Below, one piece after another: positions 203 to 49,600 of a DNA stretch of 64,000 bases. Position 1 is the first letter of the stretch. Every line of letters starts with the position of its first letter. The notes beneath the pieces are model-generated. The model had not been told where the DNA came from, did not search any database, and saw only the letters and a list, made by a program, of their open reading frames with translations. This DNA comes from Lytechinus pictus (Eukaryota), in assembly GCF_037042905.1 (NCBI RefSeq), contig NC_087245.1, positions 25,546,001-25,610,000 of the forward strand. The letters run 5' to 3'. The position numbers and the translations under genes were made by a program.

Positions 203-443
203 GGCCCGTATTCTGAAGTCAGGTTTAATCTAAACTCTGGTCTAAAGTTGTGGTTCAACCAACCAAAGCCAATTGTGACTCACTTGACTCTCAAATCAAT
301 CTTAACTGTCTGGGAACGACATAAATACGATAACTGTCTTCACCATTAAGGAATCAGGAAATAGCACAGTAAACATAAGAAACATACCATGTGAACAAAT
401 TTTGGCATGTTTAGAGCAGTGGTCTAAGTTCAGAATGCGGGCC
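203..443. mobile_element. MITE, Harbinger-like termini; diverged relative at about 5830-6130
   Basis: TIR ggcccgtattctgaa ... ttcagaatgcgggcc. Internal cacagtaaacataagaa and ggtctaagtt are shared with 5830-6130. Confidence 0.6.
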
Positions 444-499
444 CATGACAATTGATGAGGATCATGTATTTTATAGATAGATCCACTGGTGGGTCTTAC

Positions 500-12272: not shown

Positions 12273-12689
12273 AATGAAAGGTGTAAAGAAAAAAGCATAA
12301 CGTGTAAAATATTCATAGGAAAATTAAATCAATGTAATCGTAAAAAAACTTAATTACATCGAATGTTTGGAAATTAGAAAAGATTTAAAGGCAGCTGAAA
12401 ATACCTTCCAAAATTTATATGCAGTATGAAAGATGTTTAAGCCAACATCATCCCATCCAAACCCTAATCCTCCATGGCTGCTATTGGGCTGATATGAAAT
12501 TAGGTCAGAAATTAAAAACTTCCTAAAATATCTTATTCCTGAAAATATTCATAGAACTGTTTGAGACTTCCAAAATGTAATCATGGTAGAATTCATATAC
12601 ATATATATTTGACTGGAGGTAATCTGAAGACTTCAATATCACTTCATAATCTATCCAGGCTGGAGATATTGATATCTCAATAAATAGAG

Positions 12690-13150
12690 TAAAATTCACA
12701 AAGCAAAATGCTAAAAATTCGATCAAAATCGGATAACAAATAACAAGTTATTTAATTTTAAAGATATGCATTATTCCGGTGAAACAGTTCTAGGCATGTC
12801 TTTATGAATATTCATTAGGTGGGCTGATGATGTCATATCCCCACTTGTTCTTTTGTATTTCATTATATGAAATTAGGTTTATTAAAACATTTTCTACCAA
12901 GAACTAAAACAATTGGATTGACAACTGATTAGGTGCATTAGTTATTTATTGCCCCATCTTATTTCATCATAATGGAGACACATCATTTACACATGTATGA
13001 AAAAATGAAACATTTATGATTTCATGTAATAACGTAAGAAAAAGGAAAGTGGGGATGGGACATCATCAGCCCACCTAATGAATATTCATGACGATGTGCA
13101 TATAACTGTTTTCACAAAATATTGATAAACTTTAAAATTCAATAACTTTG
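12690..13150. mobile_element. Internal fragment of a Kolobok-like MITE
   Basis: aaaatcggataacaaataacaagtta resembles the 35092 element. Internal inverted repeat atgaatattcattaggtgggctgatgatgtc / gacatcatcagcccacctaatgaatattcat. Confidence 0.5.
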
Positions 13151-14081: not shown

Positions 14082-17000
14082 TCATAATTGTTTGCCTTTC
14101 TTGTCTTTGTTGCTAGGCAAGCCAGCTTCCAAGATGACCGACATTAGGACCTTATCTTGAAGAGCAAATTCTACCTCCTTCTCATTCATCTTCAGGCACA
14201 TCTGAAAGTTTGAAGGGAAAGAATAGAAAAGATTAGGCATGCATAGTGTAAGACAGGATTGTACCATTAACAGTGGTTATCATTATGTTCAAATGCCACT
14301 TTGAGTCACTGTTGACAGTGTCAACCCTATTCAATTATTCAGTTCAATGATATTACACTAGCTTTATTATAATACCCCAACAAAAACTTTATTTGAATAA
14401 GTGAAGAACAATCAGCAAGCATGACAATGGAAATTTCATCAAAATTCCATTAAAAAAAAAAGAGGAAAGACATTTTAAACTTTATATATCACAAAGCAGT
14501 TCTATGCAAAATGTGTGTGATAACTGATAAATGTCACATCCTCACTGGCCCGTACATTTTCATTTGTTCATTGTTATGAACAAGAACAAATGCAAGGGCT
14601 CACCCAATCTACACAAGTTCAAAGTGTAGGAATAATAGTTAAGACTTTGGGAAGGACATATTGCAACATACTGGTAATCTAAACAAGGTGGTTCACGAAC
14701 CACAATTGTCCCCTGATTTCGCTATCAAGATTGCCTTTGATGTATGCTTTGAAGGTATATGTGACAATATCTAATGATCATTTGTTCAAAGTTTAAACAA
14801 AATTTATATAAAAATAAGGAGATGAGGACTCTTGTAAGTAGAAGAATTATTGGAGACCATGCATTATTTTTTTCCACAGGTCAAATGATGGCCTTCCATC
14901 TTTTGACCCTAGATGACCTTTGATGTTATCATCACCATAAATGTGGTATTACCCAGATATCATTATTACCAAGTTATAAAAACTTTAACATTTTTGTAAC
15001 AGATGAACAGACTAACAGGAAAAGTGATTACTAGTTCTCTGCCGAACTTTGTTCAAGAGTGACAATAAGGACAAAATATGGGTCTTATTAAAACAAAAAA
15101 AATTGCACCTGGGGTTGTGGTGCCTTGAAATAAGGAACGTTTTTTTACCTTTGTTTGTCTAGCATCTTTTGATTTCTTGAGAGCAAGAACACCTCTAGTC
15201 TCGATCAGCTGACAAAGAGACAGGAACTCTGATTGGTCAACAGGTGCCACATGACAACTTGCACAGATCTTTGAGTATGTATCATGGACCTGCAGAGTAT
15301 AAAGTATATTCATTTTGTAAGATTGCCTTCTTTTGTGTGCATAAAAAATGTTAACAAATGTTGCATTTTTATTTTATATCTTGCAAACTAGATGCAATAC
15401 AAAACTCAAGCATGGTATTTAAAAAGAGTGTTGATCGTAATAAATGCTCAAAACTAACATACAATTCTCTAACATAAAATACTTGAAAGCAATCTCCTCA
15501 TTTTGGAAATATAAAGTACATATCATTTTCATAATTATTCCCTTAATGAGACTTCTATTTAAAACCGTTCTCTAAGAAAATACACCGTCAGTAGCATGAG
15601 TAAAAAATGTTGAGGGGGCAGTTATGGCATACAGGGACAAATTTCAAGACTGTGAGCTTTTTAATTCAAAATCTGATTTTGTGATAGATTTTAACATACT
15701 ATTCAGAAAATTATATATCTCACCCCTTTTCCTTTCCTTTTCTCCCCTTTTCTTGGACTTGAAAATTAATGGGGGGGGGGGGGTTCTGTGTCCCCCATCT
15801 GTACGCCAGTGTACATCACATTTTCATAAGATTAAGCCATATACTTGCTGATCTGATGTTGAATGACCATTGAATACTACTATTGTTCCTCAACCTTCAT
15901 TGTTTGAGAAACTTTTTAATACCACTATTGTTCTGGGCATGCATTTGCATTATGGATTCCTTAACACTAAATACATTCATTGATTAGGGAGCTTAATGGC
16001 ACCATGAATACAAATTAATCCCTGCACCACCTAATAAGTCCCCATTCTTTAATAGATAATTCCACTTCATAAGATGAGACACAATCAACATCAGGGACTA
16101 GATTACCACCCCCATCATTTGACCATTTTGCATAAAATATTAGTTTTGAAGAGCATTCACACAAAGCATTAGTGACAAGGAGCAAATCTTTGTTGGGGTC
16201 CAGGAAGCAATGGTGGTAGAGTCACTGACCAGTGGATGGCAGGTTTAAGATTTTATTTCTGACTTCCTTTTCACACTTCTCAAACCAAACATGCGATCTT
16301 ATTTACTGGTCGCCATCCAAAACTCCAGATAATTGTTTAAAAAGTTTCAGGGGCTAAAAGTCACAAAGAATATATATTGTGATAGAGAGGAAAATTGATA
16401 TAATCTTATTTCAAAAGTATGCATTTCAACCTACCTTTCCCAGTGTGACCTCTCGAGCCTTGCCTTCCTTGACCATGAGAAGAACTGTACAGATAACCAG
16501 CTTCTGTTGCAGAGGGAAGCTTTGACCTTTACTTCCGGATGAGGTCATGACCCCTGACCCATACACCTCATTGATGACATTGGAGACTTGGAGCAGAGAG
16601 ACTTTCTTTGGGAGCTTTGATGGAGAACCTTTCTTGGGCGAATTCCTGGCAGATGATTTGACGGGTGACAGTAGGGTTTTTCTTGGGGAGCCTGAAATGG
16701 AAGAAAACCAACCTTGCCATTTTAGCACTCTTGAATGCAACAAGATTCCCATTTTGAATAGACTCAAGCAACAATAAGTGCTCTGGGAAAAAGGGTATAC
16801 AATGAAACAACTGCCATTTTTTTCTTATGCGGTGTTGCCACCAAGCATTTCTTTACACCATTTACAACCTTTTTTTAAAAGCTATGACATTGTTGTTTTG
16901 TATTTACCTTCTAAAGCAGTTTTAACAAAATGTGACAGTGCATGTATATCACAATCTGTAATACACCGACTGGAAAACTTACATTTACATCATATTTACT

Positions 17001-20000
17001 GAAACCGTAAGGTGAACACACACAAAAAATTGCCAGAATTCATGAATCAAAATGAAATTCACATGGTCTTAAAATCACCATTTCCTAGAACATTATTAAT
17101 CATATCTAATTTTTTTTTACTACTTGGTACCCAATTAAAGGGTTTAACTACTCTGTGAGGCATATATGTCGGGTAGAATCTCGCACATGGTTTCAATGCC
17201 AGCACTGCAATTGTGCGATGTCTCACATAGGTTGATTGCAAAACTGAGATATTTCGCACTGTCTAAAAGCTGATTGCACGGGTGGGATTTTTCACAAGAT
17301 CTAAAGATTGATGGCAAATATATAATATTTCACATTGTGCAAAGGATGTCATACCTCCTGATGGTTTTAATATCGACTGCCTCCTAATGTCTGCTTCAAC
17401 AATCTCCACTGCTCTCCTGAAGTGAAAAGAAGACATACAAAATTGTGGTTATTTATCCATATGAAGCTAACATAGAGCAATTTACGATACAAAAAGCTCT
17501 ATATTTTAATATGCTATACATTGCCTATATGTCAAAGAAAACAGTACCAGGCAACCAATGTCAAATCTATAATGGTACTTTAGTACATCACATTATAGCT
17601 GTATTCAGATCACCTTGAAGTCTAAGAATACCAGGTTTTCTCTGATTCAGAGATTCACCTTGATCTATGCAGATCCGTAAATACCAGATATTTTTGCCAA
17701 TGTGAAAGAAAAAAACTTTAAAATATTCCTGAAAGAACATACCCGCTAAACAGTACGTACTTGCACAAATATGAATGCATTCACAGAGATTTTTTTTTTC
17801 AAGGCTGTGGGTTTCCAGTATGAAAGCAAATTACGGGAACATTCTCAACCCAGCAACCATACTGCTCATAACTTACCGTGAAAGGGTCGGTGTGAATGTG
17901 GAAAATAATCATGGGGTATTTTGAGGCCTGGCAAGTAGGTCTGAATAAAAACCTACTGACTGTGTTATCTTCTTCTTACCTCCCAGGAATGTTACGTGAT
18001 TTGTTTGAAATGAAAACCTTCTTCCTAAAACCTACCTACAGACGTCTAGTGCTTTCCTCACGTCTCCAGCCACTGCTGCTACTTTCCTTGCACAAAGCTG
18101 GACGGCCATAGGATCTACTACAGCTGTACCATCAACAGTACTCTACACAACCAAAGAGAATCAATGTATGATTATAGTTATGTACATGTGTTAACGCTTT
18201 GGATTCTTACAGACATGCATTGATCGGACAGGATTATTTAAACCCGTGAATATCCTTCAATAATGTCATCAAACACCAATGTATTGGGTGATTTCAAGTC
18301 CAGTGTTGGTGTTGGAAGCACAATTTCCTACACAAATAATCCAGATCACAATATTGACGGCTCAACACATAGTGACTAACTTTTCGGGACCATCTCCATT
18401 GTGTGTTTCGTGTTATACTCCAGTAAAATTTACCAAACTCCAACAGCAATAGGTGAACACTGAACTAGAAATCACCCATTGTGTACTCGGCTGTCACAAC
18501 TTTTGTACCATAAAATGCGTGAGTTTCAAAAGAAAAGGATCATGAAACTTATTGAGAACTACTTATGTAGAAAATTCAGCATAGGAAATGTTAATGGAAG
18601 CTGAATTAGCCCCCTCCCCCAAGTATTTTCTGGAATACATGACACTAATTGTCCAGTGGGCAACAGCACTAGTCTCTAAAAGTGATGAGATATAAATGTC
18701 ATCTTTTACCATTATCAACAAAACAACTTAAGAACAATAAGATGACGCATTTCACAAGCTCAATTTAATGTCAATGCGTAATGATAATGACTGTTACCTC
18801 TTTGAGTCTATCCTGCAAGATGGTTGAGATCTGGGTCCTTGTGTATGGAGCAAAATGAAGAAGCTCTGGTCGACATTTGGGTCTGGATTGAAGCCTAGGC
18901 AGTATCCTATCTGTGAGATCCAGTGAATTGGCCACACCTGACAGACACAAAGTCAATACATACTTAATATAACTATCTATACAGAATCAATATGAACACA
19001 CTACATGGGATCGAAAGTGACCACTGTCATTGCAAGCTTTAACTTTCAATGTTTATTTAGGGAATTTTTGAAAATAATATACCGTAAGTAACGGTGTATT
19101 AACCGCACCCGTGTATTAACCGCACCCCCCATTTTCGGATGGAAAAAAAAAAAAAAAAAAAATCAAAAAAAAAAAAAAAAAAATCATTAAAAAAAAAATT
19201 TAATCAAACCTTACTTTCTATCTCTAATATGCGTATTTAAGAAAGAGTCAAGAACCAAAAAATATCGAAGAATTACTGGTAAAAAATGATGGGAAATCAG
19301 CGCTTCGTCACTTATCTGCAAGTTGCCGATATTATTGGCCACTTCCACACTCCGAGTCACCTCACACACACACATATGGTACCGGTGTTCATTGCAAGTA
19401 CCGATACCAGCATCAACATGGGGGCTCACCCATACGAGAAGATCGTTCATATCATATTTCCTGCATCACAGCCCCACTTTTGCTTTCAGAATTCTGTCTA
19501 GCATTCAATGTCTTGACATGAATTTTAGACAAGGGAATACGGGAAGGTTCAAGATACGAGAAATTTGCGATTTTGTTCAGGTGATTTTCTTGTCTGCTTT
19601 GAACCACTACCGGTAGTTCTCAGTACGTGTGTGGCGGTATCTTACAGACAGCAAAATAGGAAAAAAAATGCTAGTACCGGTATACCGTATTTTCAATGGG
19701 AGCTCTGGGCGGGAATAAAGTGAATAATAATTAAAAATAAAAAGTCGGAAGGAGTGAAGATGGGGATTGAAGATTAATTTTGAGATGATGGATGATAGAG
19801 AGAAATGAAGGAAAGGCAAATGAAAGAAATTAATTGTCAAATAATACCAATAATTTGTCAAACAAAATAACTTCCACGGAAAGGTAAAGCGCCAGCTTAC
19901 GTTGACGTTGCGATAAACATTACACATGCATGTCTTATTCGGCTAGCTGCACCGCGCTGTGCGATCGATTGGCGTCTGAACTTTGCCGCGATGACTAAAA

Positions 20001-23000
20001 AATGACAACAAAGACAGAGTCACACCATTAAAAAAAGTCAGTTTCATGAAGGTAGGTGCGTTTGTTACCGTGATATAACTTTGAGGGACATTTACGGCAG
20101 ATACCGGTAGTCATAGTTGCTTCCCTTTTATACCCGCGGCTCATACCCCTCTAAACGGGATTGCCCCAAGCGGCTACGCTCGGCCACCCGACGCGAGTTG
20201 AAAACTGGTAGTGGTATCGGGCTGAGATTGGCTTGGCTCAGACCTGTCACCGTGTATAAACCGCACCCCCGACTTTTGATTCTGTCCCGCCGAGAAAAAG
20301 GTGCGGTTAATACACCGTTACTTACGGTACAAGAACATGTGGTTGGGGAATAGGGTTACAATAAAATGACAATAAAAGCATATAGTATAAAATAATATGG
20401 CTTGCAAAATTGTGACCCCCCTTGACAAGACATACAAAATAATGAATCAAGAAATTAAAGCAAAAATCAAATCTACAATAAATCAAGTAAAAACTAACAA
20501 AGTAAAAATGAAGACAAAAAGACAAAAAAGAAACATAAAACTTGAGCTGTAAAAAAAACATGCAAGTGAAAAAAATATTTAAAAACTGTTATCTTACCAA
20601 CGAGAACCAATCTTGATTTTGGTAGACTAGGCCATTCAAACATGGTGTAAAGAACCTCCTGTCCCTTGGAGTCTAAGTGATCAATTTCATCCAACACTAA
20701 CAATCTAAAATTAAATAGAAGAAAAAGAGTTATATTTCCTCCTTTAGTGGCAATAATGGCATCCAACTTACATGTTGTGTGTATAATGGGTTTGACACTT
20801 AAAAAGTCACATTGATAAAAACGTCTGAAGCAGATGAGATGGCTTCTGTGAGAAATTTGATATTCACAGCATAAAAACCCCCAAACTTTGAAGTGAATTA
20901 TAGAGAAAACTGTATCGACATGATATTGTGAAGGATGCTTATAATGCACCTCAGAACTGACGTTTGCAGAAAAGCAATGGGATTTCCAACATGCTAATCA
21001 ATTCTTTCATAGGTCACCTGCATTTCAAAAAGCATTAGACAAATCCCAAGTAGTCAGACCGACAATTTCGACCATTATTAATTAGACTTTAAATGCGAGG
21101 GCATGGGAAAAGCAATTCTTTGCGGTGGATCATTTTTGGTGTCCCTTGAATAGTTTTCCTGATCGGAACGTGTACAATATGTACCAGACCATATAGACCA
21201 ACTGCTAATAATGACCGCATGCCTCTTTTTGGGGGCCTTTATTACACGTTTCAATATCAAATCTAGAGAATAAAGCACTCTTCATCTCTTTTCTCTAAGA
21301 TAATACAGAATGGAAAAAAAATGAAAAGAACTTTGCATTTTGGTTCACAGAATGCAAGACTAAACATTGGCATTACTGTACTACAGCACATTACTTCACA
21401 GGGCACTGACAAGAGCAAATCCCAAAAGAAATAAAGGCGATAGTGTCTGCAGAAGATTTACTTACACAGTGGGTCCAGGGGATGTGAATGACTTCTGTAG
21501 AGCTCTGGCAGCCATCTTGGCTGACATTTTATCCGTTGATACATCATGATTGACCTCTTTCAAGACTGTGTGATATATACCTTGGCTCTGTCTAACTAAC
21601 ATACAGTTTACAAATATATGCTGACTGCTCTTTCTGCTACCCTGCAGTGAAAAAAGAAAAGAAATGTGTGGCAGTGTAAGAATATTGTCAAATAATATAA
21701 TCCAGGGATCGTATTCATAAATCCCAAATCAGTAGAATAAGCAGATAAAATGACTGTGGGTAACAAAGTGAAGTCAAAGTTATTGATGGTTGTTATTGAA
21801 GTTCATTAATTAGTCTGATGGAATTTGTCTTAACATCCTTGGCAGGGGCTTATTCACCTACCTGCAAAGCTACTACACTCATAAAAGAAGCTCCACCCCC
21901 TCAAGAATGGTGATGTTCCATGATATTTTTCAAGTCAAGAGCGTATTGCTGCCTGACACATTCCTACATGTATACAAAGCTATCAAAATAGCAACATGTA
22001 TAGTTGATTTGCTTGTCTTTATACTTTTCAAAAATAATTTCCTTTAAAAAGTTATAGATGTATTTGTAGATGAGCACTTAACTTTTTGTGGTTTATCTGA
22101 TATGAACATTACCTTCAAATTAGAGATTGCAGGATGATATCATTGGAGTTTTCAATTTAAAGGTCAGTCGACCATCATTTCAAAGAAATAGTATAAAAAA
22201 AGTCTTTCAATATGGTCATCATCAAATTATACAAAATTTGTCATATTTCCCAACATAAATAATTTGTTGTAGGTTTAATTTGATAAAGTACCTTATGTTG
22301 CTGCTGTAAGATCTGTTTAAGACAAGCCGTCTTGCCAGTTCCCGGTGCGCCAGAGATGTAGAGACTCCCCGGCTTCCTTGCGGTTAGGTGATTCTTGAGG
22401 AAAGACTGGATGGTTTGAGTCTCTTTCTCTCTGCAAAGGAGACGCTCCGGAAGAGATGTGTGAAGGGCTTTCTTGGCCGAGCTGTAACACTCACCTGAAA
22501 TACATTAACAAACAAATTTGATTTCAAAAACCTATCCAGGGTATACAAATCTTGGGGTTCTCCCACGTATAAAAGATTGTTTGGTAGTGAATTCTATGAA
22601 TCAAGGAATAGAGGCGAAACATAAATCAAAAGCTTTTCAAATGACACCCACACAATATCACAAAGTAGTGCTGGTCGGTATTTAATTTCATTGTTAGACG
22701 ATTATTGCCAACAAAATGTCACTGATAACCACTGGCACCATGGTTTGCCAGATCAATGTTTCCTTCTATGTGAAACAGGGCATGGCCCTGGGAAAGTAGG
22801 AAGCACCCCCAAGATTTGTCTAGGGGGTGCTGCATCAGGTAGGTATGATAAAATGTAGAAATTTAACATAGAAAGTACAAATTTGAAAGCACATTCATTT
22901 TGAAGTGTAACCCTTATTGTTTTTGGCTTGTCAAATTGTTCCTGACCCAAATCTGCTACATTTTAGGGTGAAATTTTTTTTTCCCTCTCTTGCCAAATTT

Positions 23001-25061
23001 TTCTTCCAAATAAGCAGCCCCTAGTAAATAATTGTTCCCAGTGCCCTGGAACAGGGCAGTAACGGGGCAGAAATCATTGACTCAATCTTACAAACATTGG
23101 ATTCTGATATCTTACCATCTTGCCTTGCGACGCCGAGTTTCCTGATAGGAGTGGACTCGCATCGCTTTGAAGGTGACATTGATTCCAGGATACTTCTCTT
23201 TACTTTAGTTGGACTGCAAGCTTCTGGCTCTTGGTTTTCATCATTGTAATGATCTGAAACAAAATAAAAAGAAACCCTTTTCATGTAAATTATAATGAAG
23301 TATCAAACAAGCCTTCAATTTTGAAATTTTAAGAATAGGCCACTTTTTCACAGGGCATGTTTTTTAATATTACTGCACAAATGGGAAAAATGAAAAAGGA
23401 ATTAAATCTCCAAGACCAATAGATGGGCATGAAGTCAGTTAAAGAGCACCCACAACCATGACCCTCGATGGCCTTAGATTTATTCAAGCCCAGGGGTAGG
23501 TACTATAAGGACCTGCATCCTAAAGGTTTAGTCCAGCAACCAGCGCAAGAAATAAACCATGGCACCTATTACTGCCCAAGTTGCTCCTCAATACCTTCAA
23601 ATTATTATTTGTAGTGACCATTTTCTTCAAAACGCCCCAAATATGCAAATAATTGTTTTCTACAGTCATTGCTATACCTAATGGTTTATATAGCTATAGT
23701 ATGCAGCTCTAAATGCTATTAACTTTATAACTGATGTGCAACAAAATATGGCTCCCAAATAAACAAGAATAGCCCTACATTTGCAAGACCAAAAATCAAA
23801 GATTTATTTTCTCCTTGTTCTGCATACATACAAGTTGATACATTCATGACGCCAAAATGAATATTTTGCTTCAAAAATTTGTCCCATAGGTTTAAGAAGG
23901 AGCAATTGTATATTCAGCGGACTTAAATTGATTTGCAGAATAATAGTAAAGATTGTGAACATACCTGAAATCGATCTCTTCCTTGGAGATTTAGATGGTG
24001 TCTTTAAAGGAGAGTCCTTAGCAGCAACAACTGAAAATTAAGGATAGATAAATTAGTCCACATTGAGGAACACGATATTACCATAAATGTTGAGATCGAA
24101 TATTAATACGCAACATTTATTTAGTGCTCACTTAATACAAATGTTTCTAAGCACTGCATATAATTACCGTACCCAGCATTAGTTAAGAACAATTATATTA
24201 AAGTTAATTATTTGAGATTACCATGAATATGAAGTCCAAATCAGGGGTGTGAGTGGTCACAAATAAAAATATCTGAAAAAAGCTGAAGTGTTGAAAAAGT
24301 CTGAAATAGAAAGAGCTCCCATACTTTTTGTACAGAGGAAGGCCAAAAATAAGCTGAAAATCAAAACAAAAAAATCTGAAATCAGATAAAAATCTGTACT
24401 CTCACACCCCTGGTCCAAATAATTCATTGACAAAATAACAAAGAATAATCACATGACGGGATGTGTGACTTCATTTCATGAATCTTAATGAAGAGTCATC
24501 TTATCTTGTGATTGGAGGATTTTAATACATTTCTCCAATTTTTTATGATATACATGTACTCTCTAAGGTAAAAGGAAAAGAAAATTCTGAGCAGAAAGGT
24601 TTATCTACACTGCAAGTACTAGAAGTAAAGTTCATAATGTACATGTTTATAAAATACATGAATGAGATCATGTATGTGGGTCTTGCTTCATTTTGAGTAA
24701 GCCCCACAGGCCCACAACCATGAAGATTAATATGTTCAACATACAAACTTCATGAAATCATACATCACAATATTTCACACTACATGTATATACTTTGATA
24801 CTTACCAGTACTCCTCTTCCTAGGTGATATAACCCCATCCAGTCTATCAGCTAATGATATAAAGCTTTGTTCACTATCTACATGTACAGGTGTTGATTTT
24901 GAAAGTGAAGAGAGACTTTTACTTCTGCAGTGATCTCTCTTTAGTCTATCAAGTTTCTTCTCTCCACCCTTGAGTGTGTGTTCAATCCTACTCGGTGTGT
25001 TAGTTTTTCTTGTTGGGAATGACAGAGTAGACTGATTACCCCTTCGAGTTTGGACTGGCAT
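14082..25061 (-). CDS. CDC6: Cell division control protein 6 (replication licensing AAA+ ATPase), 12 coding exons, about 590 aa
   Basis: Exons: 24806-25061 (MPVQTRRGNQSTLSFPTRK), 23965-24030, 23116-23253, 22292-22494 (Walker A SLYISGAPGTGKT), 21466-21641 (FVNCM), 20598-20704 (Walker B LLVLDEIDHL), 18798-18937 (GVANSLDLTDRILPRL...FAPY), 18036-18142 (CARKVAAVAGDVRKALDVCR), 17355-17416, 16435-16691, 15149-15289, 14082-14201 (TGA). All junctions are GT-AG and in phase; total 1773 nt. Confidence 0.95.
14682..15067 (+). mobile_element. Degraded HINE-like element in the last CDC6 intron
   Basis: Starts aacaag, has a subterminal ttgtcccctg matched by gagtgacaa near the 3' end, tgacctttga and ccaagtt core motifs, and a 3' hairpin-like sequence. 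Confidence 0.4.
15589..15811. mobile_element. Degraded hAT-like MITE, same family as 38925-39185
   Basis: cagtagc ... gccagtg ends. Internal ttttgtgatagatttt and tttcctttc blocks are shared with the 38925 copy. Confidence 0.5.
18286..18477. mobile_element. Small PIF/Harbinger-like MITE
   Basis: TIR gggtgatttcaagtccagtgtt / aacactgaactagaaatcaccc, 3-bp TSD ATT. Confidence 0.65.
19082..20327. mobile_element. Non-autonomous Tc1/mariner-superfamily (Tc2/pogo-like) element in a CDC6 intron
   Basis: Perfect 28-bp TIR ccgtaagtaacggtgtattaaccgcacc, TA TSD, subterminal gtgtatwaaccgcaccc repeats, no transposase ORF. Confidence 0.85.
24242..24412. mobile_element. hAT-like MITE
   Basis: TIR caggggtgtgag / ctcacacccctg, perfect 8-bp TSD gtccaaat. 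Confidence 0.85.
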
Positions 25062-25550
25062 GATGTTATGGTTAGAAACAAACTGCAAAGAAAAAAAGAT
25101 TAAAAATTGTGTTCAGACGTGAAATGCTGTCAGGGGCTATGCAGTCGATGAGATAAAAAAATACTTGGAGTGGCCGATAAATATGAATCTCAACTCGATG
25201 CTAAAATATTCCGCACGCTAGACCAGTTGAAGCAGGATTTAGCATGAGGTAAGATTCACGATATTTATCGGCCGATGCAAGTATTTTTTTATCTCATGAT
25301 ATTGTTGGCCTCCATACGCGGCTTGTAGCTAGGCTACGATAACAAAGATGGCAAGATGGCGACTATAACAGACTGAGTAATGCTTCTCTACTTTTAATAT
25401 TTTCATTCATTGCATGTTTTATAATATTATCTATAAAAAAGGGTCCAAATGATATTGTAGCCCATTAACATAAGTTTGGGCTCAAAACCCTAAAGAAAAT
25501 GTGTGTTTCTGAGCAACTTTATTGTTGGCAAAATACTTGGTGCGTGTAGA

Positions 25551-29424: not shown

Positions 29425-30048
29425 TTAAACAAACTGAGTGTGCGTAGTAGACGGGGTAATAGATACATGATATTTTAAAATGTCTGCATATCAGGGTATA
29501 TCATAAAACAGAGACCTTCTGTGCATTACAAAAATATTATTTCAAATATGCGATATGGCAAGTTATATGGGCACTGTTTGAGGCTAACGTTACTTCTCAG
29601 AATAATTGATATATTTTAGGGAAAACTATATTACAGTCTCATTTTTTTTTTTTTTTTTTTTTTTTTGGGGGGGGGGGTATTTTTTCAATTACAAGACCAC
29701 ACATCTCTACCATCAATCAGTAGACACAGTTACTGTTACCAATCAGAACTTCCTCTTTGAATATTGCTACTTGGCCTTCATAGTGTGCCTGTGCGTATAA
29801 AATCAGTAGATATATGTCAGGCCCCCTCCCCCTACATGTTATGTATGTACATGTATATTCATATATTGTCCTTATCAGGAAATTTAATACCAAAATGCTC
29901 GTTCATTGAACGAAATGACACTGATTTTTTTCTCTTATTATAACAATGTTATTCTTATTATTTTCTTTGTTGTTCAAGGGCAAACTTACAGTCTCATTTT
30001 GTGGTATTTCTTGGTAAAATATAGTTTCATAGCTCAAGTCTTATCTCA

Positions 30049-31576
30049 CAGGGGCGGCGATTCGCCTGCATGGGGGCTCAGTGCCCCCACTCTTCGAAGC
30101 ACTGAAAAGGTGCCGTTTTTTTACGCAAGAAAAATGCCCCCCCCCCCCATGAACGTGTAGTAATGAAATAAAATGAAAATCCATAACGTAACTGTGCCCC
30201 TTTCAGAAGAGGAGCCGTTTTATGCGTTTCCAAGTGCCATATCTCGTATCGGTGCCCCCTTTTACCCAAGTAGAGTGCCCCTCACGAACGTGCTCTGTAT
30301 GCCCCTTTCACCTAAGGATCCGTTTTATGTCTGAGCAAGCAGTGTGTATTTGAGTTTTGTCAGACGTGTATCAATCAGATATGATTATTTACGTCTGGGA
30401 CCGACCTTTAACGTCACCATCCGAAAGACGTGACCAGGGCTCGAACCTCGAACCTCTGCATCAATTTGTAACTTCCCCCACATAGCTTGGATACAGGCGC
30501 ACGCCACAACGCCCAGTTGTGCTCTCAGTGCCTTCTTTTAAGTGCCCTTTCTCGAATCAGTGCCCCTTTTTAAAGAAAAGTGCCCCTCATGAACATGTGC
30601 CCCTTTCGCCTCAGTGGCGTAGCTACGGGGGGGGGGGGCCTGGGGGGGGGGCACGTGCCCCCCCCCCCTGAGATTTGGTGTGCCCCCCCAGAAAAAATTG
30701 GCAGAGCAAAAAAAAAAAAGGAAAGAAAAAAGGGAGAAGAAACGAAAAAAAGAAAAAGGAAAAGAAGAAGAAAGACAGAAGAAAAAAAGAAGAAGAAAAT
30801 AAGAGGAGGAAGACGAGTGAATGAAATAATGTAATTAAAAAAACAAATCTTTTATGTTACTAAATAAAAATTTTGCTGGCGCTTCGCGCCAAAATTGCCT
30901 GTTCAATGAGATTCATATCTTGCTCAATAGGCTGATATGGAGCAAGTTTTGAAGTCAATATGCAAAACATATTTTAGTTCGATATCGAGCTTTCATAATT
31001 TTTTTTTCATTTACAAATTTAAGTGCTCTGTAAAATGTCCGTTTTATGGTCTACATATATCAGCATTTTAAGCTCACGCTGCGTGGTCACATTGTTTGAT
31101 TTGCAAAGTTCATATTGTCTACGTGTATTCCATAACGTTCCATTAAACAAATGTATTCAGAATGCCCAGATTCTAGGTCTACATCTACAACACGCGCGAT
31201 AGCCTGCATGTTCTTTATTTAAAATGTACATGTACTTGAATTATCCAGTTTCACATCAGAATATCAATAATTGTCTTTGTTTTAAGATAATGGCCGTGCG
31301 TAGCGGGGGGGGGGGTGGGGGTTAGGGGCAGTTGCCCCCCTTCCGAAATTTAGAAAACTCAATTTTTTTACTGCAGATTTTCACAAAACCAAAAGTATGC
31401 ACAAACTCCATCAATTTCACTTAACAAAATGCAAAAGCGCCTTATTAAGCTCCCTCGCTTTCGATTAAAAAAAATTGTGCACACAGCCATGTTCAAGATA
31501 GTGCCCTTTTGAAAGAAAAGATGCCTTTGTTCTATGTGCCCCCCTCCCCAATTTCAACTTCGCTCCGCCGCCCCTG
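30049..31576. mobile_element. hAT-like element hosting nested insertions
   Basis: caggggcggcg ... cgccgcccctg ends, 8-bp TSD ttatctca/ttatctta, many gtgccc subterminal motifs. Contains the SINE at 30331-30517 and another CAGTGGCGTAGC-type left end at about 30612. Confidence 0.75.
30331..30517 (-). mobile_element. SINE-like insertion with a 7SL/Alu-like 5' head, B-box and Deu-like core
   Basis: Minus strand reads ACTGGGCGTTGTGGCGTGCGCCTGTATCCAAGCTATGTGGGGG...GGTTCGAGCCC...GTCTTTCGGATGGTGACGTTAAAGGTCGGTCCC. It interrupts a host repeat motif and has tgt on both sides. Confidence 0.7.
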
Positions 31577-32360
31577 TTATCTTACATTACTGCTATTATG
31601 TTTTACCGTAATATCTTAAATTTATATTGTAATTGTTAATGTAATTTCTTGATTATTTTTGTTGATTTCGTTATTGTTTTAATGCAACATCTATAAATTC
31701 AGCTTTTCAAGCTGCGATTACACGTCATGTTCAACATGTTCGTTCAACAAATCTTAAATCTTGAATTAGTTTTATTTTTTTCAACAGGTATTATGTGATC
31801 TGTAATTATTGGTGAAAATCAATAAAATACAAATAAAAAAGAAAGAAAAATCCGAATTGATTATTGAAATGTGATTGTTTAAAAACTGACATTCCTAAAG
31901 GCTGGATGATATTTGTAACAGAATGGGGAGCAATGATTCTGCCCAAAATGTCCTTTCCTAATTCGGTATTATTACGCTTAGTTATAGACATGATTATTAG
32001 ATTCTCTTTTTGTCTATAAGAACAAAGGGCCCTGGGAAAGATTTTTAAATAGAGGGTGTTGAAATTTGTTCAGGGGATTGTCGTTAGAAAAATAATTGTA
32101 TAGCACAAAAAAAAAGAGAAAATGAATAGAAAAAACTCTCCGTGTCATTCGGGAGCAATATAAAATTTTTTCATTTTTTTGTGTTTTTTTGTTGCTTGTA
32201 AACCTCATTTTCCAGGAGAGGATGCGGCCTGGTAAATAACATACACGACACACCGAACCCCCGCTTCCCAGGGCCTTGTCGGAACACTAAGCAACACTGA
32301 GACTTAATTAGATTGTTTACTTTGCTCACACTGTTTTTCAGAAAGTGTAAAATTCATTAA

Positions 32361-33478
32361 AGGAGAATGAAACCCTTGAAACCAACTGAATCCATATCAA
32401 AGAGAAAAATCAAAGAAACATATTGTTGAAAGTTTGAGGAAGATTGAATGAATAATAAGAAAGTTATGAGCATTCGAATATTGAGATCACTAGTGCCATG
32501 TAGATCCTCCCAACGGCAATGCGACCAAGATCTGTGATATCACACACGTACAACTCCCTCATTACTTTAGTACTTATTTCACTTATATTCTCACTTTTAT
32601 AGAGTCTACCACAAGGTGAGGTGTTCCCTTTATGAGATGACAAGTACAGAGGTTTCACAACATTATATCATTGATGAATCGTTTGTCATATGATTAGAAT
32701 GAGCAAAAAGAGATGTTTTGGGGTATATTTTCAGTGTCCAAATGGGAGAGTTGTACGTGTGTGACATCACAGATCTTGGTCGCATTGCCAATGGGAGGAT
32801 CTCCATAGCATTAGTGATCTCGACATTCAAATGCTCATAACTCTTTTATTGCTAGTCCTATTTTACTCAAAGTTTTGTTGATCTAAATTCATTAAAGGAG
32901 AATGAAACCCTTGAAACCAACTGAATCCATATCAAAGAGAAAAATCAAAGAAACATATTGTTGAAAGTTTGAGGAAGATTGAATGAATAATAAGAAAGTT
33001 ATGAGCATTCGAATATTGAGATCACTAGTGCCATGTAGATCCTCCCATCGGCAATGCGACCAAGATCTGTGATATCACACACGTACAACTCCCTCATTAC
33101 TTTAGTACTTATTTCACTTATATTCTCACTTTTATAGAGTCTACCACAAGGTGAGGTGTTCCCTTTATGAGATGACAAGTACAGAGGTTTCACAACATTA
33201 TATCATTGATGAATCGTTTGTCATATGATTAGAATGAGCAAAAAGAGATGTTTTGGGGTATATTTTCAGTGTCCAAATGGGAGAGTTGTACGTGTGTGAC
33301 ATCACAGATCTTGGTCGCATTGCCAATGGGAGGATCTCCATAGCATTAGTGATCTCGACATTCAAATGCTCATAACTCTTTTATTGCTAGTCCTATTTTA
33401 CTCAAAGTTTTGTTGATCTTATTCTTTGATTTTTCTGCTTTCACAAAAGCTAACTTGCTCCAAGAGTTTCATTCTCCT
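32361..33478. mobile_element. Kolobok-like MITE with a 535-bp tandem duplication
   Basis: ttaa|aggagaatgaaac ... gtttcattctcct ends. 32350-32884 is repeated at 32885-33419 almost identically. Confidence 0.85.
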
Positions 33479-34488: not shown

Positions 34489-35091
34489 GTTGAAGTGAGC
34501 TTGTGTGAGTGCCTGGGGAGAGAGATGAGGGGGGAGGGGGTATGGGGGTAAGGTGATTGTGTAGGGACGTTTTAGGATAACCTTCCTCTAATTAACCTTT
34601 AAAATAATATTTTATCCTTTTTTTTATTTCTTGTACAATTAATATGTGCAAAAGAGATTATTTCTATTCTATTCAGGGAAAAAGTCATTTTTTACAAAGT
34701 AGGTTTTTTTTAATTTTGTCGATTGATACGGGTTTTTCCCCTCTGCTTTCACATTGTTATAGAAGAGAAATTTGGCAGTTTAATTTCATTTGTAATCATT
34801 TAAAAAATATTCGTAATCTCATTGATATTGATATATTTATTTGTTTGATTGTTTATTGATTGTATACATACAAAGAATCTTTATTTATATGAATTGTGAT
34901 TGTAAACTTATTGATTTGAAAGAGGAAGAAAATAAAATATTATTCAAAAAAAAAAAAAAAAACGTCAATCCGATCCACTTTTTGGGAGGCAACGTAACGT
35001 TTTCATCTGAAACATTTTTCCTTGTAATTACTAATCTGATTTCTTACAACATGACTTACGTGATCTACGGACTAACATGAGCCACTTTTAA

Positions 35092-35698
35092 AGGACAAGT
35101 CTACATAAAAAAAATGTTGATTTGAATAAATAGAGAAAAATCAAACAAGCATTATGCTGAAAATTTCATCAAAATCGGATGTAAAATAAGAAAGTTATGA
35201 CATTTTAAAGTTTCGTTTATTTTTCACAAAACAGTGATATGCACAACTCAGTGACATGCAAAATGAGACAGTCGATGATGTCACTCACTCACTATTTCTT
35301 TTGTTTTTTTATTGTTTGAATTATACAATATTTCATTTTTTACAGATTTGACAATAAGGACCAAATAATTGATTGAACCATATAAGTATTAAACAATGCT
35401 AATTGCACATGTTCAGGGAGGAATTAATCGTTGTTTCACACGACAACGGAGATAATTGGAATATTTCATATTTCACATAATAAAATACAAAAGAAATAGT
35501 GAGTGAGTTATGCCATCAGTCTCCTCATTTGCATACCGACAAGGATGATAATATAAATGTTTAGTGAAATTAAGCGAAACTTTAAAATGTCATAACTTTC
35601 TTATTTTACATCCGATTTTGATGAAATTTTCAGTGTTATGCTTGTTGGATTTTTCTCTTTTTATTCGAATAATTTTTTTGTTGGGGTGGACTTGTCCT
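35092..35698. mobile_element. Kolobok-like MITE, full length
   Basis: ttaa|aggacaagtc ... gacttgtcct|ttaa with long imperfect TIRs (aaaatttcatcaaaatcggatgtaaaataagaaagttatgaca mirrored). Confidence 0.88.
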
Positions 35699-36000
35699 TT
35701 AAAGAGAGTAATAACAGTATATAATGGAAAGCTGCATGGTCGTGTTATTGATATCACCTCCAGTATAACCTCGCAATTAAAACCTCAAGAATATCTTAAA
35801 ACATGTCTGAATGATACTTAATTACATGTCATGAAGTACAGACAATGATATAGATCTTCTCAATTGTGTATTTGAGAAAGAGAAGAGGAGGAGGGGGAGG
35901 GGAAATACAGGAAGATAGAGGGGAGAGAGAGAGTGGGGGGGGGGAGAAAGATGAAGAGAGTCCACATTGTGTGTCTGATCACACAACTTTTTCTCATGCA

Positions 36001-42674: not shown

Positions 42675-44162
42675 TCAGCCGCTAATTGGCTTGACCTTTC
42701 GATAAAGATTCTTATTGGCCGAATTGAATTCTTCAATATCTTCTACAAGTTTTCGCATCTCTTTCCGTCGTAACTCGGCCTGTGAAGCAGCTGTGACAAG
42801 AACACGACCGACTTCATGGTCATACGTCTTCTCTTCTCTCTCTGGCATACGGGGTGTGGCAGGACGAAACATAATGAAAGGTGCGTTGATCGTCACCAGA
42901 CTATCCATCTGCCTCTCGTTCTCACTTTCCGACTTGGAGTTGATCTGTACGACGGGTATCGTATCATCGCTACCTTGTGACGACCCAGTCGTCGAAGAGA
43001 TCGAACGATTCTGTTGATATTCGACATCGGCATCGATGCCACTCGCCACCGCCATGATGTTGGCCATGTCCTTGATAGACGGCTCTGACTGTGAATGACT
43101 CAGACGTATCTGGGACAGTGTCACACCAATCTCGGACCAATCGTTAGAGTCGACCGTATCTTGGTATTGAGAACTGGATGCAGAAGAGGCGCTGCCCCTG
43201 TTGATAGACACACCACTGTCACTGCTTTGGGAGTAGTGACATCCCAAATCTGATTTTTCGGACACGACCGTGTGGGGAGTACAGACAGGAGCTTTGTACC
43301 CAGAGGCGTCCGGGTTGTAGTAGTCTCCATGTGGTACATCGACGTTGATTGATCGTTTGACAGGAACTAGTTCTTGACTTACCCTGCGACTTCTATCTTG
43401 AGAACTTGAACGGGTCGGTTTGTATTTGACTGATGACTTTGCTTTGGTCGCAGCACCCCGATAATCTGATTTGTCGGAGCTATGTCGACCAAAAGCCTGT
43501 TTGATAGTTCTCGTTTGTGCACAAGATTCGTTCTCACTACACGTTGATCTTGATCGCAGTCGACCCAGAGGTTGCGAGTGTGAGCATGACACATTATACG
43601 ACCTTAGATGCATGCAATGTTCATCTGACGAGGCTTTTGTAACGCGGTTAGATAACGGTGTCGGCTTTTTAGAGCGAGCAAAGCGTTTAAGCGTGGGTGG
43701 TTGAGGGCCTTTGTCTATATCTGGCGAAATTTTATCAATTGACGTAAGTGAGTTGTGCCTCTTGGAGTAATATTCAGTACGCTTTGTCCCTTTCCTCGTA
43801 TTAGCATCATCCAATAGACCTACTCCTTGGACTGGATGTATGGCGGGTACTGGTCTGTTGGCCTTAGAGTACATAGATAGTCTACCAGCTCGAGGCACGG
43901 TTGACAGGTCAGCATTGGTGACGAATACTGGTAGATTAAGAGAGAGATGACGGGTAAGACTGGGACGAGTCACTGGATGTGTCCTATGACGACCATGATC
44001 ACCACCCCTACCAACAGAGGGCGTACTAGACTGCCCGTCTTTGTGAAGTTGTTCTTTCATATCTTTGATCTTACTTAGATACTTGACGTTATGATCGCCC
44101 TGTGTTCGTACATCATCGTACCATTTCTGTTTCTTGTCTGGGTTGTTGCTTGACGATTTCAT
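42675..44162 (-). CDS. Uncharacterised 495-aa Ser/Arg/Thr-rich, probably disordered protein with a short C-terminal helical/coiled segment; single coding exon
   Basis: 1488-nt ORF in a GC-elevated island within AT-rich DNA. ATG in good context (accATG). A splice acceptor with a pyrimidine tract lies just upstream (AG at 44219-44220). No domain recognised and no transposase or RT motifs seen. Confidence 0.7.
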   Translation of the reverse strand: MKSSSNNPDKKQKWYDDVRTQGDHNVKYLSKIKDMKEQLHKDGQSSTPSVGRGGDHGRHRTHPVTRPSLTRHLSLNLPVFVTNADLSTVPRAGRLSMYSKANRPVPAIHPVQGVGLLDDANTRKGTKRTEYYSKRHNSLTSIDKISPDIDKGPQPPTLKRFARSKKPTPLSNRVTKASSDEHCMHLRSYNVSCSHSQPLGRLRSRSTCSENESCAQTRTIKQAFGRHSSDKSDYRGAATKAKSSVKYKPTRSSSQDRSRRVSQELVPVKRSINVDVPHGDYYNPDASGYKAPVCTPHTVVSEKSDLGCHYSQSSDSGVSINRGSASSASSSQYQDTVDSNDWSEIGVTLSQIRLSHSQSEPSIKDMANIMAVASGIDADVEYQQNRSISSTTGSSQGSDDTIPVVQINSKSESENERQMDSLVTINAPFIMFRPATPRMPEREEKTYDHEVGRVLVTAASQAELRRKEMRKLVEDIEEFNSANKNLYRKVKPISG

Positions 44163-45908: not shown

Positions 45909-46620
45909 AATATCTAATATGCTTCTTTGTTCACATTTTTTTCTAGATATGCTGTATATTAATACTTTCATTGCTTTCCTGAAAATTTAGGACGCTTCTC
46001 TTTGTTCGACATTGCGCAAATTTCCTGTGAAACAACAACGAAAAAACATGACACTGATGGATTTCCATACATTTGAGATTAATCGGATCAATCGTGACTC
46101 TTCGTATGACGGGGCCCTGAAAGGGGAGACAAAAGAAAATAAATGGTTGGGGCGCAGTATAGGATCCAGACATGATTTATATACGAAATTTTCTTAAAAA
46201 CAGTGAAATTTAATGTACGCAAAAGAAGTGGCCGTGGACGTATGAAATCTAGGTAGGGAAATGTCCTTGTCAAAACACTTCTGTCATTATTTTGGTTTCT
46301 GGTTTGTGTAATTATCCACCTTTATTATTCAGCGCGGCAGTTTTCCATTCTTCTATATCGCGATCCGTGTTGTCGACTAATAACTTCATGTCAAATTGGC
46401 CAAGGACAGGCATGGCCTGCATTCATTTAATTCGAGGAAAAAAGGAAAAACAATTAAGATAATCATCCGGATGGCTTCCCCTGCCATGGTTGCCACGGTT
46501 ACTTGATATGTGGGGATTGTGAGTTGGTAGTAATGATGTTATATTGGTAATGAAAGACGTATTATCCTGAAGGTGACCTCATCTTTAAGATGAGCTGTAC
46601 GGATGCCGAAAGGTATTCTG

Positions 46621-49600
46621 TTTGCATTGACGCCCACTGGCGACAATGCATTGTTCTTGTTCCGTATTCCTATTCCGTCGTCTTCTTCTTTGCATTGACG
46701 CCCACTGGCGACAATGCATTGTTCTTGTTCCGTATTCCTATTCCGTCGTCTTCTTCTTCTTCTTCCACAAAATCCCATTTGTTTAACACATGGTTTTTGT
46801 TAGCTCTGCCCTGGCTCCGTCCCTCATCCAAACTCATCCAAACTTGGTAGACATGTTTTCCAGCATCCCTAGTTGTGCACCTCGTCTTCTATTTTCCAAA
46901 ATCGCTCATGCATGACCATCCAGGCGCCATTTTGTAAATTTCAAGTCCATTTGCATACCATTACTAATCTCGTCCTAACTCCCGCATCCTGCATTCTACA
47001 GACTTCTAACAAATTGCTATAGATAGTCAAAGAGTTGCCCCATCATTTGCGACGTATAACTTGACCTTCAAAATGCCATCTTCATGCCCTAAATTCAAAT
47101 CCGAAATAGCCTTCCTTCAAAAACGTCATATTTATTGAAATGTAAAGTAAAAAAAATCGTAAAATGGCCATAACTTTCTTGTTTTTATTTATTTCGAGCT
47201 CATATGTTCAGGAATTGATACTGGTACCATATCATACATAGGAATGAGTTTTCACGCATCACTGAATATCCGTTACTGAAATAGCGCCCTCTAAAGTTTC
47301 AAAAACGCTTATCTTTGAATGCTCCTCATTGCATCATGCATGGCCAAACCCGTACCCTTTTTTAGATTTAGGGTGTTCAAGATATGCCCTTTCATGCCAT
47401 TTAGAAAAAAATATACCTTACCACTGACGAAATATCTGAAAAATGCTCCCGTAAATCAGCAAAATACGCAAAAATGCACTATAATGCCAGCACAACTTGA
47501 ACTTGCTCTTATTTCCTTAATATTGAAGTTTATCCTTTCTAACTTGGCAGATATGAGTATTGATATATACTACAACCGTTCGCCAACCTTTTGTGACAGA
47601 AACTGACATAGAGCTGACGTCAGCTCAAAATTATTGTGCAAAACTGTCATTTTTAATGTCTTTCTTTATATGGCATTTACTTCCGGTCTATTGCTTGCGC
47701 AAAAATAAAAGTGGTATCAATGTCACCGCATTGGAATGCCCTATCCAGTGATACCAAATACGACATAGGTTACAACAGAAAATTTCAAGATAAGCCAATC
47801 TGAACACATGGTATACTACTCACAATGCACACATTATCAACAACAGAATTGTACACAATGTCTATGGCATAACGTATTATGCATGCACATCGTTCTGCTA
47901 TGTACTTTACACTGAGTTACGTGAATGAACTGTCAGGGAAATGTGTATGCTTATTCATATCACTCTCTCTGTGTCTTTTTCTCCCTTCTCTTTCTTTGTT
48001 GAGTGGCCATGTGGTCTAAAAATGGACGAAATCTGTTTGACTCGAGAAATGTAACTTCGTATGGAGGGCAAAATGTACCAAAATCCACTTTGATTAACAT
48101 GTAATTTTTGTTAGTCCTCCCCTGCCTCCGCTCCTCATCCAAATTCATTCCGATTTGGTAGACATGTTGTCCATGATGCATTATTGTGTACCTCTTATTT
48201 CATTTTGTAAAATCATTCATGCATGACAGTGCATGCGCCATTTTGAGTGAGTGACATCATCATCTCTCTCATTTGGATGTAACTGGCTCGTTCATATAAC
48301 TATTTTGTTAAAAATAAGCGAAACTTTGAAATGTCATAACTTTCGTATTTTACATCCGATTTTGATGAAATTTTCAGCATTGTGTTTGTCTGATTTTTCC
48401 CTATTGATTCAAATCACTATTTTTCTGAGGTGGACTTGACCTTTCAATCAGACGCGTCAATGCATGCACATCGTTCTGAAACGATTGCAGTTCTAGTCTT
48501 CTTTGCATTGACGCCCAACGGCGACAATGCATTGTTCTTTCCGTATTCCTATTCCGTCGTCTTCTTCTTCTTCTTCTTCTTCTTCTTCCACAAAATCCCA
48601 TTTGTTTAACACATGGTGTTTGTTAGCTCTGCCCTGGCTCCGTCCCTCATCCAAATTCATCCAAACTTGGTAGACATGTTGTCCAGCATCCCTAGTTGTG
48701 CCCCTCGTCTTCCTTTTTTCAAAATCACTCATGCATGACCATCTAGGCGCCATTTTGTAAATTTCAAGTCCATTTGCATACCATTACTAATCTCGTCCTA
48801 ACTCCCGCATCCTGCATTCTACAGACTTCTAACAAATTGCTATAGATAGTCAAAGAGTTGCCCCATCATTTGCGACGTATAACCTGACCTTCAAAATGCC
48901 ATCTTCATGCCCTCAATTCAAATCCGAAATAGCCTTCCTTCAAAAACGTCATATTTATTGAAATGTAAAGTCAAAAAATCGTAAAATGGCCATAACTTTC
49001 TTGTTTTTATTCATTTCGAGCTCATTTTTTTTAGGAATTGATACTGGTACCATATCATACATAGGAATTAGTTTTCACGCATCACTAAATTTCCGTTACT
49101 GAAATAGCGCCCTCTAAAGTTTCAAAAACGCTTATCTTTGAATGCTCCTCATTGCGTCATGCATGGCCAAACCCGTACCCTTTTTTAGATTTAGGGTGTT
49201 CAAGATATGCCCTTTCATGCCATTTAGAAAAAAATATACCTTACCACTGACGAAATATCTGAAAAATGCTCCCGAAAATCAGCAAAATACGCAAAAATGC
49301 ACTATAATGCCAGCACAACTTCAACTTGCTCTTATTTCCTTAATATTGAAGTTTATCCTTTCTAACTTGGCAGATATGAGTATTGATATATACTACAACC
49401 GTTCGCCAACCTTTTGTGACAGAAACTGACATAGAGCTGACGTCAGCTCAAAATTATTGTGCAAAACTGTCATTTTTAATGTCTTTCTTTATATGGCATT
49501 TACTTCCGGTCTATTGCTTGCGCAAAAATAAAAGTGGTATCAATGTCACCGCATTGGAATGCCCTATCCAGTGATACCAAATACGACATAGGTTACAACA

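Follow-up and report, generated by a model that had tools for sequence, protein, structure and literature searches.

SINEs derived from 7SL RNA are extremely rare, and the known ones retain both strands of the Alu domain (PMC7245038, PMC13023118, PMC11760393). A 2018 paper gives 7SL-derived SINEs for Euarchontoglires only (PMC5786205) and a 2024 paper for primates, rodents and hagfishes (PMC10886601). The Euarchontoglires SINE1 families Alu, B1 and Tu, as well as Urop of the shrew mole, begin with the 5' end of the 7SL Alu domain, carry a box A and lack the S-domain; they keep 7SL nt 1-83 and 267-299 around a deletion of about 183 nt, carry a poly(A) tail and rely on L1 (PMC13023118). In SINE1-1_EBu of the hagfish Eptatretus burgeri, a 7SL head of independent origin, also devoid of the S-domain, is joined to older tRNA-type SINE parts and combined with a non-L1 partner and a microsatellite tail (Kojima 2020, PMC7245038). 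In the hagfish element, 96 nt from the 5' region of 7SL are retained together with its 3' strand; the B box in use is that of 7SL, the RTE parts are bipartite, and the target duplications measure about 17 bp (PMC7245038).

Two further systems are relevant. SA46 is an engineered minimal Alu domain of 46 nt, reported to bind SRP9/14, to suffice for one round of retrotransposition and to retain, in HeLa cells, about 86% of the activity of a full Alu, but it has no complete Pol III promoter and cannot spread alone (Moldovan, Yin and Moran, PMC11760393). DeuSINEs, which include the sea urchin SINE2-3_SP (tRNA head, CR1 partner; PMC3747384, PMC4824008), carry Deu domains of 70-330 nt in the described members, and in their 5S-headed subgroup a new small-RNA head was fused ahead of the tRNA head (PMC4758252).

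In this work, we describe an element of a sea urchin genome that shares features with all of these systems. Like Alu, B1, Tu and Urop, it starts with the 5' end of the 7SL Alu domain including box A and has no S-domain, but the 3' strand is missing and its tail is not poly(A). Like SINE1-1_EBu, it combines an independent 7SL head with a microsatellite tail, and probably with older tRNA-type SINE parts and a non-L1 partner; it differs in its B box, which matches the tRNA-type consensus, in its Deu start, in its 3' hairpin followed by (AC)n and in the lack of the 7SL 3' strand. The 7SL stretch retained is the same as in SA46 (nt 1-46/47), although the sea urchin element, which has spread, possesses a downstream B box. 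The Deu start is shared with DeuSINEs, from which the element is distinguished by a head of 7SL rather than tRNA or 5S origin, SINE2-3_SP being compared by its description. Because the 7SL 3' strand common to the Alu, B1, Urop and hagfish lineages is missing, the element is set apart from all of them.

The element lies in a stretch of 64,000 nucleotides of Lytechinus pictus (hereafter the window), and its position, parts and flanks are as follows, with nt counted from the 5' end of the element.

30190..30341, no strand assigned: host GGGGCAC-rich repeat, 3' flank (self-alignment; contig joint with the uninterrupted form).
30342..30517, minus strand: whole SINE copy, 176 nt (loose contig ends, full cover in some contig pieces and head-to-tail joints).
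30342..30360, minus strand: 3' end, in which the (AC)n tail of this copy is short (loose-end consensus at 30342).
30361..30397, minus strand: 3' stem-loop, nt 121-157, candidate recognition site of a LINE reverse transcriptase (fold).
30397..30430, minus strand: truncated Deu/Nin domain start, nt 88-121 (by-eye likeness to published SINE modules).
30427..30456, minus strand: B-box segment, nt 62-91, including GTTCGAGCC (nt 72-80), with closest resemblance to the 3' half of a tRNA-type SINE head.
30471..30517, minus strand: head (nt 1-47), corresponding to the 5' Alu domain of 7SL/SRP RNA, with a possible three-way junction (identity to the SRP RNA gene L001, Rfam RF00017 with E=0.001-0.002, hand-assigned pairs).
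30504..30513, minus strand: A-box position, nt 5-14, putative 7SL-type internal Pol III promoter (position and identity to L001).
30518..30620, no strand assigned: host GGGGCAC-rich repeat, 5' flank (75% identical to 30232-30316; itself repeated in runs).

The contigs of four public sequencing runs, out of 24 listed, were aligned on positions 29960-30620 (661 nt). Three of the runs (X1, X3 and X6) are samples of one organism label and the fourth (X7) carries a second label. In all four runs, loose contig ends stack at 30342 (169, 170, 153 and 34 contigs), beyond which the consensus reads (AC)n and then unrelated DNA. Since the contigs leave the alignment at this position into (AC)n and unrelated DNA, we place the 3' end of the element at 30342; the first-pass annotation had extended it to 30331, thus including 11 nt of flank. 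The 5' end is constant at 30517-30518 in several contigs, in agreement with the start originally proposed, and head-to-tail joints (30517 to 30342 and 30515 to 30342) reveal pairs of elements in which both ends are used. Fifteen of the 32 listed contig pieces extend to 30513 or further, although none of the eight from X7 does, and two of the 32 span 30342-30518 entirely; the latter have 21 other letters and represent another locus, perhaps one locus in two samples. LTR ends (TG...CA) and terminal inverted repeats were looked for at the corrected ends and none was seen. The folding of the whole element was not better than that of shuffled sequences (43 of 200 as good). A Pol III template must be free of runs of four T, and the element contains none. 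At 176 nt, and with unrelated flanks at other loci, it is short and interspersed in the sense of the SINEBase definition (less than 1 kb, interspersed; PMC3531059).

That the element interrupts a host repeat was also borne out, as two GGGGCAC-rich units align at 75% identity across the insert. Contigs of X1 and X3 contain a joint from 30337 to 30529, with the letters of 30518-30527, that corresponds to the uninterrupted form of the host repeat. Compared with this form, the window adds the 176 nt of the element and a 4-nt tandem repeat found on the 3' side only, where 30338-30341 duplicate the four nucleotides at 30334-30337. The uninterrupted form, whose short side measures 21 nt, may stem from a paralogous repeat unit; it is not callable as the orthologous empty allele because the unique flank at 29960-30028 has zero cover in all four runs. 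Differently from SINE1-1_EBu, no clean target-site duplication is present at this one copy, in which no more than 3-4 nt, overlapping with the (AC)n tail, are common to the two flanks.

The element is not single-copy. Contigs aligned per run numbered 5106, 6002, 4289 and 525 (X1, X3, X6 and X7), with a 3' end shared across runs. In X1, X3 and X6, the summed depth over 30351-30465 amounts to 0.86-1.5 million, single contigs have depths of 25-96, and the flank bins reach 0-41 thousand; summed contig depth is inflated by overlapping short contigs and cannot be read as copy number, although such values do indicate a major repeat. In each of these three runs, loose ends occur at the 3' end of the element in 153-170 contigs, from which over 100 body insertions can be deduced, bearing in mind that contigs are not loci. 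A young family is suggested by X1, where 3204 of the 5106 contigs show a likeness of 95% or more. The second organism label showed 525 aligned contigs, 34 loose ends at 30342 and 10 contigs with a 7SL-like continuation, which hints at a family shared between species. The share of the words present was 0.26-0.28 in three runs guessed to be RNA and 0.06-0.09 in six RNA runs, sea urchin and echinoderm metagenome labels included, and provides no evidence of expression or of the host. In our assessment, the sea urchin element is very probably a real, repeated, 7SL-headed chimeric SINE, young and abundant.

Within the 64-kb window, a single copy of the element was found. A possible relative of its body and tail, decayed and without head, occurs at 18198-18271 on the minus strand (48 of 74 columns identical; 3 of 600 shuffles as good), apparently within an intron of a CDC6-like gene whose exons extend over 16426-25112 (minus strand) and include a Cdc6_C domain. 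Facing this gene, the exons at 477-7115 (plus strand) presumably belong to a CWC22-like gene, and a 54-nt minisatellite occupies 568-1764 in this exon region. A low-complexity protein of 495 aa without Pfam family is encoded at 42678-44162 (minus strand); it has four homologue hits, the sole named one being from the sea urchin Diadema antillarum (60% identity), which speaks for an echinoid host. A protein-atlas comparison yielded no informative taxon (best score 0.84). Other repeats are also found in the window. Positions 35087-35703 and 12679-13148 hold MITE-like pairs of related arms that face in opposite directions, and relatives of these lie at 14373-14511 and 32361-33478. An array of units of about 1.8 kb (46616-64000, 90-98% identity) contains a piece related to the inverted-repeat element at 35087-35703. 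A 535-nt tandem duplication at 32350-33419, with 99.8% identity, is either very recent or an assembly artefact.

The assignment of the head to SRP RNA was examined with a profile search and with a complete SRP RNA gene. Metazoa_SRP (RF00017) was the best of nine Rfam matches with E of at most 10 in 29500-31500, although its 24 bits (E=0.001) are weak and far under the gathering score of 70; with the element alone, it was again the best, of six matches (19.2 bits, E=0.0021, model positions 2-43). tRNA and 5S families were absent from both match lists, ARAGORN reported no genes in the window, and no Rfam family attained its gathering score there, hence the window contains no SRP gene. The 7SL reference, L001, is a complete SRP RNA gene (259.5 bits) of some other animal rather than of the host, and was the one locus retrieved when metagenome contigs were scanned with 23 nt of the head. 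It lies at 244-541 (minus strand) of its contig in what seems to be a tandem array with a unit of about 730 nt, and the contig start holds the 3' end of a second copy of the gene. Pattern scans of prokaryote genome contigs gave one locus, a bacterial match of 22 nt that does not extend and was taken for chance, and those of viral contigs, with both patterns, gave none.

Nucleotides 2-26 of the element are identical to L001, and nt 1-40 align to it with a score of 54, against a maximum of 35 among 2000 shuffles, none of which was as good; for these reasons the resemblance between the head and SRP RNA is taken as real, and the head matches SRP RNA, neither tRNA nor 5S, with L001 standing in for the host's own 7SL. 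The A-box stretch (nt 5-14) is identical to L001 and coincides in position with box A in the 7SL of human and hagfish (PMC7245038). Downstream, nt 86-176 compare with the SRP gene at chance level (1408 of 2000 shuffles as good), in line with the lack of an S-domain noted at first, and the search for the 7SL 3' strand (about 267-299) in the same segment gave a score of 14 against 7SL 251-298 (1137 of 2000 shuffles as good). Judged by these sequence comparisons, the head is derived from 7SL RNA, without the S-domain and without the 7SL 3' strand.

Such a head could in principle belong to an SRP RNA gene, a processed 7SL pseudogene, contaminating primate Alu or a transferred hagfish element, all of which it resembles; by eye, 24 of its first 26 nt equal those of SINE1-1_EBu. 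We regard this set of explanations as highly improbable. An SRP gene or a pseudogene is contradicted by the missing S-domain, 3' strand and poly(A) and by a match under the Rfam gathering score, the 24 bits contrasting, for a gene, with the 259.5 of the full gene L001. Contamination by Alu and transfer from hagfish are opposed by a body unrelated to Alu and to the RTE-derived body of the hagfish element, by the location inside a host repeat, and by the occurrence in DNA contigs under two organism labels, the first with three samples and the second with one.

The 5' three-way junction of the SRP Alu domain can be drawn on nt 1-47 with 13 of 13 standard pairs, hand-assigned from the Rfam structure in a comparison of two sequences, and its closing helix at nt 47 has A1-U47 where L001 has G-C. 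The junction fold has -8.6 kcal/mol and is not the minimum-energy fold, and the folding of the head was no better than that of shuffled sequences (815 of 1000 as good).

The head (30489-30511) has only 11-16% of the summed contig depth of the body. This low depth would be expected if the abundant family were an ordinary tRNA-headed SINE of Deu type, with the 7SL-headed copies forming a small side branch or consisting of retrocopies made by template switch that do not propagate; sea urchins are known to have a Deu-SINE with a tRNA head, SINE2-3_SP, and the possible headless relative at 18198-18271 would fit as well. Nevertheless, the depth falls stepwise at 30440, 30475, 30479 and 30491, where indels separate copies, and among the best 24 of 1311 loose-end rows, six of the seven listed behind 30478-30493 continue as the same 7SL-like head, the exception being one X7 row of two contigs. 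Because the best-supported loose ends at the steps continue as the same sequence, clipping of short contigs at indels, together with a human-DNA filter, can account for much of the drop, while 5'-truncated copies or a parent with another head are also possible. In addition, none of the four runs has another head among its best-supported loose ends, and the constant 5' end, the joints and the contig pieces extending to 30513 or further indicate that head and body travel together. A tRNA-headed family is therefore improbable, and a 7SL-headed SINE is the reading that we retain.

The origin of the segment that follows the head is less straightforward. The first-pass annotation recognized a tRNA-type B box, and its place (nt 71-81) stands; a tRNA origin is likely, yet the segment is also collinear with 7SL. 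On the one hand, nt 62-91 share 22 of 30 positions, ungapped and by eye, with the head of SINE2-1_SP, a sea urchin SINE whose sequence is given in a published supplement. On the other hand, in a comparison of nt 41-90 with 7SL nt 41-100, nt 53-83 are collinear with L001 in 24 of 32 columns with two gaps, a result equaled by 4 of 2000 shuffles, or by 17 of 2000 when the whole gene is the target. The head might accordingly be one unbroken 5' piece of 7SL of about 84 nt in the same SINE, with a B box that arose by mutation and no tRNA part. Nucleotides 1-84 are in fact collinear with 7SL nt 1-80 (60 identities, 19 mismatches and six gaps), that is, 60 of 85 columns or 71% identity, a figure that applies only if the whole stretch is 7SL-derived. 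In SINEBase, the required likeness to tRNA, 5S or 7SL is 60% identity or more across 60 nt or longer (PMC3531059); the 84-nt alignment would formally reach this, whereas nt 1-47 alone fall short of that length. However, the B-box segment carries a 7-nt tandem repeat, seven nucleotides of which are absent in 9-18% of the summed contig depth, and without this repeat the match to 7SL is weaker (19 and 113 of 2000 shuffles as good). Moreover, the fit to the sea urchin tRNA-type head requires no gap, and the Rfam match on the element alone ends at model position 43. We consider a continuous 7SL head unlikely, and the B box probably comes from a tRNA-type SINE rather than from 7SL, as far as alignments can tell. 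The double likeness of this segment, to a tRNA head and to 7SL, could have aided a template switch.

The body was originally described as containing a Deu core. Its location holds (nt 88-121), but the whole core does not, given that the likeness spans only about 35 nt. This start agrees with AmnSINE1_HS in 21 of 24 columns, aligned by eye without a computed score (Fig. S4, PMC7245038), and nt 88-121 are also similar to the BivaMD-SINE1 rows, while nothing in the element clearly corresponds to the remainder of the Deu alignment (131-142 nt). The Deu part is thus a short fragment of about 35 nt compared with the domains of described members.

Beyond it, nt 119-176 fold with -13.0 kcal/mol (z=-4.6), a value that none of 1000 shuffles equaled, and the only listed substitution sites of at least 5% inside the hairpin, 30379 and 30380, are both in the loop. 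LINEs of the stringent type recognize a 3' hairpin (PMC3747384). No LINE ORF was recognized among the 27 ORFs of at least 100 aa in the window. The chimeric 7SL/tRNA/Deu SINE of independent origin that had been proposed at the outset is supported on the whole, with a likely tRNA origin of the B box.

Another explanation is that the family is real but already stands in Repbase or Dfam, for example as SINE1 or as a misfiled SINE2/srpRNA repeat. Its abundance and the existing repeat annotation of echinoid genomes speak for such an entry. Still, 7SL-derived SINEs are given only for supraprimates, hagfish and shrew mole in a 2026 paper (PMC13023118), and SINE2-3_SP is entered as tRNA-derived in a table of PMC3747384. 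No paper describing the family, and no 7SL-derived SINE of an invertebrate, was found in the literature searched, a search that lay outside Repbase, Dfam and most subscription papers. Previous cataloguing seems to us distinctly unlikely.

Our best reading is that of an independently born 7SL-headed SINE that has kept only the minimal module for SRP9/14 binding. The 5' Alu domain of 7SL RNA (47 nt, with box A) would have replaced the front of a tRNA-type SINE, and the remainder would have retained the B box of the latter, a short Deu start, a LINE-type 3' hairpin and the (AC)n tail. For its transcription by Pol III, the element would rely on box A together with the borrowed box B. The head may fold as the SRP Alu 5' domain, bind SRP9/14 and bring the RNA to ribosomes, where the reverse transcriptase of a CR1/L2-type LINE would recognize the 3' hairpin, new copies being generated by target-primed reverse transcription; alternatively, the head could serve as a promoter only. 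The CR1/L2 clade is our guess because other sea urchin SINEs pair with CR1 and L2 (PMC3747384). In its complete form, with the 46-47-nt module, the tRNA-type B box, the use of SRP9/14 and a CR1/L2-type LINE, the proposal of a natural minimal Alu that is also the first 7SL-derived SINE of an invertebrate is tentative, and we see it as a possibility of nearly even standing.

The sea urchin family would represent a further independent origin of 7SL SINEs, the first outside vertebrates in the literature searched, and a design different from that of the known ones, since the 5' module alone is retained. It offers a natural setting in which to ask whether a SINE profits from a 7SL head because of SRP9/14 binding. 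Comparison of the 7SL-headed family with relatives that carry a tRNA head is possible within a single genome, and the embryos and cell lines of the host are suitable for assays. If the proposal is true, ribosome targeting by the Alu domain would be a portable module, one that needs no 7SL 3' strand, L1 or poly(A) tail.
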